A stretch of 12,038 nt of DNA from a virus (Duplodnaviria; Heunggongvirae; Uroviricota; Caudoviricetes), in the IMG/VR virus record IMGVR_UViG_2568526312_000023. One strand, given 5' to 3'. This document shows, piece by piece, positions 3,375 to 10,404 of this stretch. Position 1 is the first letter of the stretch, and each line of letters opens with the position of its first letter. Under the pieces are notes generated by a model, which was given only the letters and a program-made list of their open reading frames with translations, was not told the DNA's origin and did not search any database. A program made the position numbers and the translations under genes.

Positions 3375-4582
3375 TCCGGTTTTTCTCCCTCGCTGATTTT
3401 TACTTCCTGTTTCCATGCCTGGCTGAACTCATCACCACCATCACGCGGTGACAGTCCTTCACGTTCGCGGGCTTCGTTCGGACACATAACGCCGGATTTG
3501 ATGCCGCGCTCATAGGTGGCAAAGCGTTCGCCAGGTGTGGCCCGTAACAGGTCCGCGCTGTCAAACTCCACCTGATACCGGATACCAGGTACAGGCGAGG
3601 CCACCAGCAGGGCGTTTTTTATCTGCTGCTCAAAGTTCGCCAGCCACGGGCGCATCGTCATGGTGAGAAATGCGCGGCTTGCCTCGCTGAAATTGCTGTA
3701 GGTGCTGTTGCTGTATTCCTGCAAAAAAATCGGCGAGACGTTGAACATTCGGGCGATGTCTTCAATGGTGAAGCGACGGGAGGCCAGCCATTCAGCATCC
3801 TGATTACTCATGCCCAGCTGCTGATAGCTCATACCCCCTTCAAGGATGGGCGTTTTTCCGGCGTTTCTGGCCCCTTTGTAGCGTTCCAGTGCGGCTAATG
3901 CCTGTTTGCCCTTCACGCCGTCCAGCCATTCGCCTGACGTGATAACCCCTGCCGCCATCATGCCATCACGCATCACGCTCGCGCCGTGGCGTTGTTGGGC
4001 CAGCCCAAGCCCCAGCGATTCGCGGCAAATGGTTACAGGTGAGCGCCCCATAAAACCGTCATCCGTGGAGTAACGAAGGTGGAGAACCTCCCACGGTAAA
4101 TAGTTGCGGGTGTTTCCGGTGTAAGCGTCAGTGATGCAGTAGCGCCAGTTGTGTTCTCCTGTCTGCTCCACGTTCACCGACTGCGGCGGGTAAGGATGTA
4201 AAGCCGCCGGAAAACCATCACGCCCCCACTGAATCACCGCGTAAGCATTACCGTTTAACAGGCAGTGGCGGATCATCATTCGCTTAAACTGGTAGGGAGT
4301 CTGCCACGCGTTCGGGCGCTCGTTGAGGATGTGATCGACCGGATGAGAATCAAGCCACTCTCGGGCCTCCTTCCCCTTCTCATTGCGTACCAGGTACAGG
4401 TAACACGGCATGGTAGCCACCGCCTCAGAGATGACCGTGACGGCGTTCATGACGGCGGGCAGTGATTCCGCTGTCCCCGATGATACGTACTCACCCGCCC
4501 CCGTGTTCGATGTGCCAGCCAGCGCCATAAACTCATCAAGCGTCATGCTGCGCTGCTCTTTTTTTCTTCTGAAAGGCCACAT
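3371..4582 (-). CDS. Portal protein, HK97 family
   Basis: 403 aa. Contains ESLPAVMNAVTVISEAVATMPCYLY and RRFTIEDIARMFNVSPIFLQ, which I recognise as HK97-type portal signatures. ATG at 4580-4582 preceded by GGGGGTG SD. Confidence 0.88.
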   Translation of the reverse strand: MWPFRRKKEQRSMTLDEFMALAGTSNTGAGEYVSSGTAESLPAVMNAVTVISEAVATMPCYLYLVRNEKGKEAREWLDSHPVDHILNERPNAWQTPYQFKRMMIRHCLLNGNAYAVIQWGRDGFPAALHPYPPQSVNVEQTGEHNWRYCITDAYTGNTRNYLPWEVLHLRYSTDDGFMGRSPVTICRESLGLGLAQQRHGASVMRDGMMAAGVITSGEWLDGVKGKQALAALERYKGARNAGKTPILEGGMSYQQLGMSNQDAEWLASRRFTIEDIARMFNVSPIFLQEYSNSTYSNFSEASRAFLTMTMRPWLANFEQQIKNALLVASPVPGIRYQVEFDSADLLRATPGERFATYERGIKSGVMCPNEAREREGLSPRDGGDEFSQAWKQEVKISEGEKPE

Positions 4583-6640: not shown

Positions 6641-6913
6641 TTATCTGTCCTGGTAATTTCGCCATATTTCATCACCAGCACCATCCATACCCATTTCGGC
6701 ATAAGTGCGATCGACCGCCTTTTTCAGGTCTCCGTAATTATCCGGCGGCTCCGGTGGCCTCTGTGCCTTCCTGGAACATTCCAGCCGTCGCATCGTAACC
6801 TGATGCCGTTCCTTGTCTGTCTCCACCAGTTGCATGACTTCACCCCATCGCGCCGACGCTCTCCGGTAAAAGCCTTTCGCCTCCAGTTCTTCCGCTATGC
6901 GGTCATGTACCAT
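6641..6913 (-). CDS. PerC-family-like small transcriptional activator (putative late-gene activator)
   Basis: 90 aa from ATG at 6911-6913 (GGGGTGGGGA SD). N-terminal DRIAEELEAKGFYRRASARWGEVMQ resembles the PerC/Pch family motif (..LE.KG.WRRAA.RW..) as I recall it. Located directly upstream of the head operon leader. Confidence 0.55.
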   Translation of the reverse strand: MVHDRIAEELEAKGFYRRASARWGEVMQLVETDKERHQVTMRRLECSRKAQRPPEPPDNYGDLKKAVDRTYAEMGMDGAGDEIWRNYQDR

Positions 6914-6925
6914 CGTCCCCACCCC

Positions 6926-7345: not shown

Positions 7346-7651
7346 TCAGTGAAGCGATCCGGCGTTATTCTTTTTCATCTCTTCCATCATTTTTTCAGTG
7401 AGCATTACGCACTGAAAACCCATGTTTTTGATGTCTACGGGTTTCATGCCTTTGTCAGTGGATATCACAGGCAGAATATCCTGATACACATCGCGGTCAG
7501 GGTAACTAAGCACACAAAGCGCCCATGATGCCACGGGTGAGGATCCTTCGTCTGTTTCAACCCACCAGCCTGGTGTAGCTGCGCTTATTTGCTGAATCGT
7601 GATCCGTCCGTTGTGCTTGTAAAGTTTTTCACCAAATTTTGGTTCGCTCAT
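7346..7651 (-). CDS. Hypothetical protein (101 aa)
   Basis: ORF with ATG at 7649-7651 forming an ATGA overlap with the upstream gene stop, in operon context. No motif recognised. Confidence 0.5.
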   Translation of the reverse strand: MSEPKFGEKLYKHNGRITIQQISAATPGWWVETDEGSSPVASWALCVLSYPDRDVYQDILPVISTDKGMKPVDIKNMGFQCVMLTEKMMEEMKKNNAGSLH

Positions 7652-7899
7652 GATTTCAACTCTCCGGTTTTAACGTTGATGGTTGTTACCTGTTCCGCTT
7701 CGGCAATCTCCCGTTCTGTCAACGTGGCAAAGTTTGCCGCTGCTGTGGTCATGAATGCGCTTATCAGGTCGGGATGTTCCTTCGCGTATCCTTCCCCTAC
7801 GTGTCGGTCTATCGTTCTGATTGCCACCTTTAAGGCCAGCTCTGTTATATCTAACGCTTTATATTTCGGCTCTGTTCTGTCTCTGCGTGTTCTGGTCAT
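7648..7899 (-). CDS. Hypothetical protein (83 aa)
   Basis: Preferred ATG at 7897-7899 with a strong GAGGTG SD 6 nt upstream. The track ORF extends to 7932 into the AT-rich/iteron region. No motif recognised. Confidence 0.55.
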   Translation of the reverse strand: MTRTRRDRTEPKYKALDITELALKVAIRTIDRHVGEGYAKEHPDLISAFMTTAAANFATLTEREIAEAEQVTTINVKTGELKS

Positions 7900-7932
7900 T
7901 TGCCACCTCAATTTATATATATATAGAAACAT

Positions 7933-8250
7933 GTGCGGGTTATGCGGGTTATTGGGTTATCTTAGCGTGCTAACCATTTTTTACCCTTTTATATCAGCAT
8001 GTTGCAAAACACCCTGTTTATTATTTGCTCACCACGTAACCCGCAAAACGCTCAAAATAACCCGCAAACGGGGTTTTTTCTGCGGGTTACGCATGACTGT
8101 CCGGTGTTACTTCAGTTATTCGCCTGCGGGTTATAATCGTGCTTTTGCGGGTTATAAATGCCCTTTTGCGGGTTACGTGCGGGTTATTGATTTCCTTTAT
8201 ATTCATGCACTTAATACACTTATACACAGGATAACCCGCATAACCCGCAA
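7933..8250. repeat. Iteron array, putative replication origin
   Basis: At least 11 copies of the 9-10 bp unit TGCGGGTTA(T/C) in both orientations. Forward copies at 7934, 7943, 8081, 8125, 8146, 8167, 8178; reverse copies (ATAACCCGCA) at 8037, 8057, 8231, 8241. Some pairs are spaced about 10 or 20-21 bp. They flank AT-rich tracts (7960-8030, 8190-8230) immediately downstream of the primase gene. Confidence 0.7.
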
Positions 8251-8271
8251 TTTTTTTCCTCACACAGGGGA

Positions 8272-10404
8272 TTAATCTTCATCATCAGGCTGGAACATCA
8301 GCACGTAAAAAACATGCTGCTTACCCCCAATCTTGCCCAGCGCCTTTTTTTTGTATCGGCGATCGCTTCCCTTCTCCAGCATTCCGGCAGCATCCAGGGC
8401 ACGCGCAAAATGCGCCGGATTAAATCCCTTCGCTATCTCACTCTCAAACACGTGCGGGAACGTGTAATAGCGCATCTCGTCATCTTCGTTGCGAATGCTC
8501 CCTTTTCTGTATCCGGCAAGCTCTTTAATCGGTAAATCACGCTCATCTGTATTGGGGTACGGAAGGTAGCGGCTAAACCCAAACGACGACAAAAACGCCT
8601 CAGCCTGTTCAACCATCTGTTTAAATTCCCTGTTACCCGTGCCGAACTCCTTCACCCAGGCATTAAAGTTATGCTGTATCGCGTCGCGGCATTCCTGCAC
8701 GACCCAGCCAGTTACATGACCGGAAAGCACAAGCGCGGCCTCCAGTATGGCGAAACGTTCACCCACGCGGTGGACCTGCTCGCCGTAACTCTCCGGTATC
8801 AGGTTGCGCCACCGTTCGCGGCATTCCCTTACCGTGTCCTTTGCCTCCTGCTGGTGGCCTGCCAGCCATTTAACCCACTCACGACCCGCCGCCCCGTGAT
8901 TTGCTGTCCAGGCATCCTTTAACGCGTCAGCATGTTCCTTACCGTTGCTGTATTCGTGAAATTTCGTGGCTTTTTCCATCGGAACGTTAAGCAGTCGGAC
9001 AAGCTGCCCCGCCTTAACTTTTATCCCCTCACTTTTGAGGAATGTCTCAACGTCCATTTCTCCGGTGCTGATTGCCACCGTTCGCCAGTGTTTGATCTCC
9101 CTGTTGCCGCCATCCTTCGCCCCCTGCAATTTCCCTGAACCGTTAAACAGCGTATAAGCAGACGTTGACACTTCCCGCGCATTTCCGGCCTGGCCTATCT
9201 CATCCAGTGGTAAAAGCCCGTCATTATGGGCCTCGGCCTCATTGGCAATACCTAACGCCGTGCCGTACCAGGTCAGCCGCTGCGCGTCCGGCTCTCCCCA
9301 TAAACTTGATGCGATGTTCTGCGTGGTGGTCTTACCTGCCGATGACTGTTCGAAAAGATGCACCCCGAAGCCGTCAGCACCCACAAGGCCAATTAAAGGC
9401 GCTGCCAGTGACGTTGCCACACCCAGTATCATTGAGGCATTACCGCCAGCCAGCCGCGCCACGCTGTCGCGCCAGCCATCCGCCGTGCCCGCCACGGAAT
9501 AACCGTTAATCGCGGCGCTTTTTCCGGTAAACAGGATCGGTTTTTCAGATTCACCAATGATCGAACCGTCCGGCATGATGTACGCGCCAAAATGCCAGCC
9601 CGTTGTTGTGCTTAACTGCCATTCCTCATGGCTTCCGCTTAACTGCATCCAGTCCGCCAGGATTGCCCTGTATTTGCCGTTGGTTGTCACGTTCAGCCCG
9701 TGATCTTTAAGTAACCGCCAGCCGTCACGGTCGCCGATACCACCACACGGGATCGCCATTGTGATGACTTCATGGTTTGCGGTTTTTTTCCAGCGCATCA
9801 CGCGGTAATGCTCTTTACCGATCGTCCCCGTTCCCAGTAGTTCAAGCGGAGAACATAACCACGTCTCAGGCCGGATAATTTCGCCTGACTGCTTATCCAC
9901 TTTGGGCGTTACCCAGAAAACACCATCGGCGCGACTTTCAACGCGTGGCTTTAATTCGTCATCGCTATGGCTTCCGGTATCTTTTTTCTTTACCGGAAAC
10001 TCAATAACCAGACCATCAGAAAGATTCTGCCGCTCACGGGCCAGATATTCGCGCCAGTTCTCCACCTTCTGACCGTGCATACCCTCAGGATAAAAATTTG
10101 CATCCTGTACACCAGCCGCCGCCAGCTTTTGACCAATCGCCTTGATCATTACTGGTGCAAGATGTCCGGCCCTGAATATGCGCACGGATTTTCTGCCTTC
10201 CGGCACAATTTGCAGCTTATCCAGTTCTGATAACTGCTGCTCCCCAAGCCACACAGGAGGCACATTATCGCCGGATGCGGGGCCGTCCTGCTCCTGCCAC
10301 TGTTTTGCATGTGCCCACGCATCACTACCCGCGAAAATAATCACCTCTGTGTCTTTGTGTTTTATTCCGCGTGGCTGTTTTTTTACGTTCGGTGCCAGTT
10401 TCAT
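8272..10404 (-). CDS. Primase/helicase-type replication initiator (satellite/P4-like pri-rep)
   Basis: 710 aa. Central P-loop-like motif GVHLFEQSSAGKTTTQ. Large size and position directly upstream of the iteron origin. ATG at 10402-10404 with ATGA overlap to the upstream ORF. Confidence 0.75.
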   Translation of the reverse strand: MKLAPNVKKQPRGIKHKDTEVIIFAGSDAWAHAKQWQEQDGPASGDNVPPVWLGEQQLSELDKLQIVPEGRKSVRIFRAGHLAPVMIKAIGQKLAAAGVQDANFYPEGMHGQKVENWREYLARERQNLSDGLVIEFPVKKKDTGSHSDDELKPRVESRADGVFWVTPKVDKQSGEIIRPETWLCSPLELLGTGTIGKEHYRVMRWKKTANHEVITMAIPCGGIGDRDGWRLLKDHGLNVTTNGKYRAILADWMQLSGSHEEWQLSTTTGWHFGAYIMPDGSIIGESEKPILFTGKSAAINGYSVAGTADGWRDSVARLAGGNASMILGVATSLAAPLIGLVGADGFGVHLFEQSSAGKTTTQNIASSLWGEPDAQRLTWYGTALGIANEAEAHNDGLLPLDEIGQAGNAREVSTSAYTLFNGSGKLQGAKDGGNREIKHWRTVAISTGEMDVETFLKSEGIKVKAGQLVRLLNVPMEKATKFHEYSNGKEHADALKDAWTANHGAAGREWVKWLAGHQQEAKDTVRECRERWRNLIPESYGEQVHRVGERFAILEAALVLSGHVTGWVVQECRDAIQHNFNAWVKEFGTGNREFKQMVEQAEAFLSSFGFSRYLPYPNTDERDLPIKELAGYRKGSIRNEDDEMRYYTFPHVFESEIAKGFNPAHFARALDAAGMLEKGSDRRYKKKALGKIGGKQHVFYVLMFQPDDED

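Follow-up and report, generated by a model that had tools for sequence, protein, structure and literature searches.

The stretch of DNA analysed here – the window, 12,038 bp in length – is 96–99% identical to the element annotated 'prophage Sp7; untypable' in E. coli O157:H7 Sakai. The supplement to Fillol-Salom et al. 2018 (PMC6092414) lists the Sp7 coordinates as the same element as that of EDL933, and EcCIEDL933 is the prototype capsid-forming PICI (cf-PICI), an island that replicates upon helper-phage induction (bioRxiv 10.1101/2022.09.08.507074). All genes of the window lie on the minus strand. They run from a DUF4222 gene through the gene for a 710-aa protein, the repeat array that is the subject of this work, two small ORFs, and genes for SSB and a PerC homologue, to those for an HK97-type capsid protein, protease, portal, head-closure and connector proteins, HNH, TerS and TerL. 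Pfam matches and annotation (window, L001 and L029) describe an island of ~15 kb that has int, an alpA-type regulator and rep, carries its own capsid, protease, portal, connectors, HNH, TerS and TerL, and is without tail or lysis genes. Judged by identity and gene content, the window is a cf-PICI of the EcCIEDL933 / Sakai Sp7 type. Most of the array is present in ~140 of 5,426 complete E. coli genomes.

The satellite also carries a homologue of a virulence regulator: a PerC-family gene at 6641–6922 (minus strand; Pfam 1.1e-43), annotated pchE in Sakai Sp7 and situated four genes downstream of the putative origin. The 101-aa ORF at 7346–7651 (minus strand; phrog_27268) is absent from Sakai Sp7, the alignment jumping from window position 7347 to 7648. 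Between the genes for HNH (2306–2746) and TerS (1660–2016) is a gap of ~290 bp (2017–2305) that holds no convincing gene; this is where cos usually lies in HNH-dependent phages, and where the island's own cos would be expected.

The repeat array

The array fills an intergenic region of 372 bp, bounded by the stop codon (8272–8274) of the 710-aa ORF and by the next annotated gene (7648–7899, minus strand). A search of the entire 12,038-bp window for TGCGGGTTAY, allowing up to one mismatch, returned 11 matches, all of them exact and all within 7934–8249, with zero copies elsewhere in the 12 kb; in 200 dinucleotide-preserving shuffles the pattern matched 1.45 times on average and at most 6 times, and none of the 200 reached 11. 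Seven copies are on the plus strand (starting at 7934, 7943, 8081, 8125, 8146, 8167 and 8178) and four on the minus strand (8036, 8057, 8231 and 8240). A twelfth iteron is degenerate, reading TTGGGTTAT at 7952–7960; in related E. coli islands this copy is a full GCGGGTTAT. From start to start, neighbouring copies are 9, 9, 21, 21, 21, 11 and 9 bp apart, that is, approximately one or two helical turns. The original prediction had been of at least eleven repeat copies in both orientations, some at helical-turn spacing, and on these points it is borne out. It had also placed AT-rich tracts within the array, among them a TATATATATATA run at 7914–7925: two AT-rich spacers do lie within, and the run is where it was said to be, but outside the array.

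The iterons resolve into two modules. Module 1 (8125–8249) is the nearer to rep, the gene for the 710-aa protein (8272–10404, minus strand). Its rep-proximal arm (8231–8249) consists of overlapping minus-strand iterons at 8231–8240 and 8240–8249, a step of 9 bp, and its distal arm (8125–8187) of plus-strand iterons beginning at 8125, 8146, 8167 and 8178, with steps of 21, 21 and 11 bp; both arms point toward a 43-bp spacer (8188–8230). This spacer is 70% AT, compared with 48% for the window overall, and has low duplex stability: indeed, when stability was scanned by nearest-neighbour values, no 41-bp duplex in the entire window was less stable than 8184–8224 (z = 3.6). It is thus a candidate DNA-unwinding element. 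Module 2 (7934–8066) is an inverted copy, likewise with converging arms. The inner arm (8036–8066) has minus-strand iterons at 8036–8045 and 8057–8066, 21 bp apart; the outer arm (7934–7960) has the exact plus-strand iterons at 7934 and 7943 plus the degenerate copy, in 9-bp steps. The spacer that they enclose (7961–8035) is moderately AT-rich (64% over 7962–8035), with a duplex stability below the window mean, yet its AT content is lower and its stability higher than those of the module 1 spacer. A lone plus-strand iteron (8081–8090) stands between the modules, and a homologous lone copy is found in two-module loci. In the Sakai Sp7 array all 11 iterons are identical to those of the window, the differences being one TA unit and two substitutions in spacers.

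Several smaller features accompany the array. The (TA)6 run that flanks it (7914–7925) lies beside the ribosome-binding site of the next gene and is length-polymorphic – one unit shorter in Sakai Sp7 – and is kept beside an orphan module in another PICI (L025; see below). Between the rep stop codon and the first iteron lies a short motif (8257–8271), which reads CCCCTGTGTGAGG on the strand of rep, and a CAYRTGYGAG-like motif is found at the equivalent position in most related loci, regardless of iteron word. The 11-bp filler between 21-bp-spaced iterons is A-rich, then has a G+C core of 5–6 nt, then a T-tract; this pattern of composition is constant across iteron classes (window 8125–8187; 21-bp units of L002, L004, L006 and L011) and suggests phased bending or a second contact. 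The module 1 spacer includes a DnaA-box-like TTATACACA (8220–8228, plus strand), a possible host-factor site that occurs only in E. coli loci of the GCGGGTTA class: because it is not conserved across iteron classes we dropped it as evidence. No IHF consensus was found in the window. An Rfam scan of 7500–8600 (E ≤ 1) returned no structured RNA, the sole match being a chance CRISPR-DR inside a coding region.

The array sits within a unidirectional operon and precedes the morphogenesis genes; it could in principle be an operator by which Rep or another island protein controls the downstream operon (ssb, perC and the capsid genes) rather than replication; initiator sites in iteron plasmids often double as autoregulatory sites. 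We nevertheless regard an operator as improbable. Between 7600 and 8500 neither strand has a sigma-70-like promoter, and the gene strand has no terminator (two terminator-like hairpins are antisense, at chance frequency), and the array follows the rep stop codon instead of preceding a promoter. Moreover, the genes downstream differ among loci while the array remains with Rep, and twelve sites arranged around melt-prone spacers suit an origin better.

The 710-aa Rep protein

Residues 171–438 of the 710-aa protein match Pfam DUF927 (1.4e-48). Compared with the sequences of the PDB, the protein matches 8tch, the SaPIbov1 initiator-helicase (2.5e-12), and 5dgk, the Cch protein of SCCmec (2.5e-3); a Foldseek search with its AF2 model, a poor one (pLDDT 57), gave these same two entries as the only significant matches (5dgk, 8.9e-8; 8tch, 8e-5). 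Neither Pfam nor NCBIfam places a primase or D5 family in Rep, and 'DNA primase' appears only in the names of PHROG families. From these matches, and with no primase family, the protein is by homology a Rep of the SaPI/Cch helicase-initiator type, for which a hexamer and helicase activity are predicted. The array had been described as directly 3′ of a primase/helicase gene. The adjacency is real, the first iteron beginning 22 nt past the rep stop codon, and the helicase attribution agrees with DUF927; the primase attribution finds no counterpart among the Pfam and NCBIfam families.

The last ~100 codons of rep (8275–8580, minus strand) probably encode the part of the protein that specifies the iteron, since their identity tracks the iteron word (see below). 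What fold this tail adopts is hinted at by three observations: the C-terminus has a weak match, below threshold, to Pfam HTH_56, the HTH of Cch (23.9 bits against a cut-off of 26.2); the last 60 residues form a helix-helix-beta-hairpin in a low-confidence AF2 model; and the protein as a whole is homologous to Cch and SaPI Rep. Together these hint at a winged-helix-like tail. The AF2 models are of low confidence both for full-length Rep (pLDDT 57) and for the C-terminal 176 aa (pLDDT 53) and are therefore too poor for a domain-level fold search, and a profile of the C-terminal 150 aa found no significant match among PDB sequences.

At its other end, the N-terminal ~140 aa of Rep (window 9985–10404, minus strand) share 82% identity with the corresponding end of the EcCICFT073 Pri-Rep (L026 2242–2660), and on this identity we regard the segment as a shared, swappable module of E. 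coli PICI Reps. Residues 1–140 appear in the AF2 model as a confident domain of alternating strands and helices, for which Foldseek gave only a non-significant hint, to the DnaG primase of Aquifex (E 0.63).

Comparison with known replicons

Origins of SaPIs lie directly 3′ of rep and comprise 6–12 opposed iterons around an AT-rich centre, with specificity assigned to a C-terminal winged helix of Rep (PMC9371898). The SaPI replicons (SaPIbov1, SaPI1 and SaPI5, each a Rep or Pri-Rep with its ori) share with the window a homologous Rep, an ori 3′ of rep and opposed iterons around an AT-rich centre. They differ in the length of the iteron (5–6 bp in SaPI, 9–10 bp in the window), and the window, whose host is Gram-negative, has two inverted six-site modules with their own spacers and a Rep with an extra N-terminal domain of ~140 aa. 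No separate pri gene was identified in the window.

For Gram-negative PICIs, too, Fillol-Salom et al. 2018 report an origin directly 3′ of rep in which an AT-rich region is flanked by two sets of iterons, an arrangement that they proved for EcCICFT073 (PMC6092414). EcCICFT073 is an island of the same type and context (DUF4222 gene, rep, ori, small ORF, ssb, perC), its ori follows the rep stop codon, and inverted tandem iterons with a 9-bp step stand at both outer ends. Its Rep, however, is of 584 aa, the remaining 440 aa being unrelated to the window Rep ('DNA primase family' as against DUF927), and its iteron is TRTCTACC as against TGCGGGTTAY. With both Rep core and iteron different we rejected EcCICFT073 as the same replicon, and the experimental proof obtained with it is therefore not directly transferable to the window origin. 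As in the published PICI class, the array is directly 3′ of rep, and in both modules opposed iteron sets flank an AT-rich region: the window origin belongs to that class, of which EcCICFT073 – the only Gram-negative PICI replicon tested – is the tested example. A third Rep core, that of a RepA-family helicase, occurs in EcCIO42, where the repeats read CYCCTCACTT. Among E. coli PICIs that share the gene context (DUF4222 gene upstream, ssb and perC downstream) there are at least three Rep cores unrelated to one another – DUF927, 'DNA primase family' and 'RepA helicase' (loci compared: L026 2242–3996, L028 5925–7325 and window 8272–10404) – each followed by its own word.

Cch and Cch2 of SCCmec belong, like the window Rep, to the DUF927 / MCM-like helicase family and have a C-terminal HTH (5dgk), to which the tail of the window Rep may correspond. 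The relation of Cch in sequence is distant (E 2.5e-3), and for SCCmec we came across no description of an iteron origin of this kind.

The original prediction drew on P4 as well as on PICI-type satellites. In P4 a single protein with several functions recognizes octamer repeats at two sites in cis, of which the crr cluster is required in cis; like the window, P4 is a satellite replicon with repeated short sites in two clusters. Yet its alpha protein combines a primase with an SF3 helicase of another family, whereas the window Rep is a DUF927 protein in which a primase domain was not detected, and ori and crr are kilobases apart, whereas the window modules fall within 320 bp. An initiator of the alpha type, with primase and D5-like SF3 helicase, is thus not what the window encodes. 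The comparison with PICIs and SaPIs stands; P4 is only a loose analogue because its initiator belongs to a different family.

Iteron plasmids (pPS10, RK2, F, P1 and R6K) have direct initiator repeats spaced by about two turns (21–22 bp) beside an AT-rich unwinding element. Their WH1-WH2 Rep recruits host DnaB and usually needs DnaA boxes, and extra iterons can control copy number. The window has 21-bp iteron steps next to an AT-rich spacer, but its initiator is itself a helicase rather than a Rep of the RepA/Pi/TrfA type, and its lone DnaA-like box, confined to one iteron class, is not conserved across classes.

Conservation of the array among Rep relatives

A scan of one genome per species recovered 20 loci with relatives of Rep across the Enterobacterales. 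One (L020) is cut by a contig end; the 19 that are complete downstream of rep, plus three from other E. coli islands, make up the comparison set of 22. In all 22, an 8–9 nt word is repeated in 5–14 copies, beginning 23–30 nt past the rep stop codon. The layout is shared: in the direction of rep, two to three tandem copies (9-bp step) are followed by a spacer and then by three to four oppositely oriented copies, which are 11, 21 and 21 bp apart. Spacers homologous to that of module 1 measure 43–57 bp and are 65–86% AT (23 loci). The six sites of a module converge on the spacer, and most loci add an inverted second module, usually for a total of 12 sites.

What is constant beside the array is Rep. 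We checked across the relatives whether a small protein encoded downstream might be the binding partner: the downstream 83-aa and 101-aa genes are missing from most of them, leaving Rep as the sole constant neighbour. In one locus, from Apirhabdus apintestini (L021 4228–4677), the rep frame is disrupted – an in-frame stop interrupts the part encoding the C-terminal region, and the sequence ahead of it is garbled – and the full 12-iteron array is kept.

Two other E. coli islands, L022 and L023, are classical PICIs that have the same replicon and different capsid genes. Compared with each of these, iteron positions of the window are 97% identical and other intergenic positions 72% (Fisher p = 8e-10), a pattern of purifying selection on the iterons.

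Do both modules initiate replication? A possible but less favoured reading is that module 1 (8125–8249) is the sole origin, with module 2 and the copy at 8081 forming a cis control element at which no second helicase is loaded: either an enhancer, as is crr in P4, or a site for copy-number control or handcuffing, as are the extra iterons of P1 and F. In keeping with this, module 2 is absent from seven relatives whose rep is intact and which have module 1 alone (L002, L009, L010, L013, L015, L019 and L024), its spacer is the less AT-rich and more stable of the two, and the number of copies in its outer arm varies among E. coli islands (two plus one degenerate in the window, three in L022, five in L023). 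In addition, L005, a locus from a metagenome-assembled Enterobacteriaceae genome, tolerates ~150 extra bp between the modules (~4340–4500), so that close spacing of the modules is not required. Against it, module 2 faithfully mirrors module 1 – converging arms, spacer, usually six sites – as would be predicted of a second loading pad.

Co-variation of the repeat word and the Rep tail

The repeated word differs among the relatives. It is GCGGGTTA in the window and E. coli, GTGGGTTA in Winslowiella and Tenebrionibacter, GTGGTTCA in Cedecea, TTGGTTCA in 12 loci, CSGGTTCA in Rahnella woolbedingensis, and TTRTCCCA in E. albertii, Serratia oryzae and Pantoea rodasii.

When the C-terminal 150 residues of the Reps are aligned, the last ~100 columns group the proteins by word. 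Over these last ~100 residues, pairs of Reps with the same word are 77% identical (minimum 63%) and pairs with different words 46%; the highest identity between tails with different words, 69%, belongs to two words that are one base apart. For the ATPase core the corresponding values are 82% and 77%. The observed contrast was reached in none of 5000 label permutations. What co-varies with the iteron word is therefore the tail of Rep, its last ~100 residues; the ATPase core does not. One caveat is that the tail adjoins the array, so that linkage within a recombination block could give part of the co-variation.

The association is clearest in a mosaic Rep, that of E. albertii (L002): it shares 94% identity with the window Rep over the core and 34% over the tail, and its word differs. 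The adjacent tail and origin are thus exchanged as one cassette, although a mosaic of this kind (94% and 34%) – tail and array moving together – is expected with or without linkage.

An orphan module in another PICI

A module of the window type also occurs apart from its Rep. In E. coli BH100 (NZ_CP024650.2), L025 3010–3175 (equivalent to L027 ~20010–20175) has three exact GCGGGTTA iterons on each side of an AT-rich spacer, together with a TATATATATA run, and is ~80% identical to window 7914–8069. It lies at the clpS end of a ~10-kb PICI in which there is no DUF927 gene; this PICI has its own rep, of the 'DNA primase family', followed by TRTCTACC iterons. Partial matches of the orphan type are found in roughly 60–70 E. 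coli genomes, a figure estimated from evenly spaced match rows, and are mostly the only match of their genome. The BH100 module may be no more than a relic, but it may also serve a foreign Rep as a secondary origin or act as a decoy.

Packaging sites often sit at the far end of a PICI, where the orphan module is found, and the array might on this account be read as a packaging signal, a cos or pac site for the TerS, TerL and HNH of the island. We consider this very improbable, more so than an operator. The word co-varies with Rep and the array always adjoins rep; the array is conserved in L022 and L023 despite their quite different packaging genes; and the window has a separate non-coding gap of ~290 bp (2017–2305), between HNH and terS.

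Discussion

We conclude, with a probability of roughly four in five, that the array at 7934–8249 is the vegetative replication origin of the EcCIEDL933 / Sakai Sp7-type cf-PICI. An iteron origin directly 3′ of a satellite replication gene, as originally predicted, is strongly supported by the layout found in 22 loci, by the co-variation of word and tail, by the conservation of the iterons and by the meltable AT-rich spacers. The biology follows the established SaPI/PICI pattern, and the origin is one of a published class. We found neither an iteron nor a map described in the searchable literature for the EcCIEDL933 / Sp7 origin, the cf-PICI papers being silent on ori and iterons, and a literature search for the iteron word returned only primers and unrelated matches.

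How might such an origin work? The repeats, layout, tail co-variation, iteron selection, low duplex stability and Rep homology were computed here; from these we infer, by analogy, that Rep binds, melts and loads at the array and replicates the island. For the Rep of SaPIs, biochemistry has established that the C-terminal domain binds the iterons, that melting proceeds without ATP, and that the protein loads itself as a 3′–5′ helicase (PMC9371898). Along these lines, the 710-aa Rep would be made upon helper-phage induction, and its winged-helix-like C-terminal tail would recognize the 9–10 bp word TGCGGGTTAY. Rep subunits would gather on the converging iteron arms that flank the AT-rich spacer, the six sites of a module answering to one hexamer; binding would melt the spacer, and the DUF927 (MCM/SF3-like) ring would load itself as the replicative helicase, with host primase and polymerase presumably taking over afterwards.

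Module 1 (8125–8249) would be the core origin, because some relatives have it alone. Module 2 (7934–8066), which is inverted, may be a second loading site of opposite orientation, or else a cis enhancer or copy-control site. It is tempting to picture the two inverted modules as accommodating a head-to-head pair of hexamers, but this is speculative. A stronger version – each six-iteron module a docking pad for one hexamer, the inverted pair giving rise to a head-to-head double hexamer, and the module a portable cassette – is a long shot, less likely than module 1 acting as the sole origin.

The immediate outcome is a set of base-pair coordinates and a likely Rep recognition word for the origin of EcCIEDL933 / Sp7, a satellite under active study. 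Beyond this island, the data show that within the DUF927 Rep lineage there are at least six repeat words, each a likely recognition word, across the Enterobacterales, with specificity tail and origin swapped together; exchange of this tail–origin cassette predicts which co-resident satellites are compatible. Were modules indeed portable, the Rep of one satellite could replicate or titrate another, leading to cross-replication or incompatibility.
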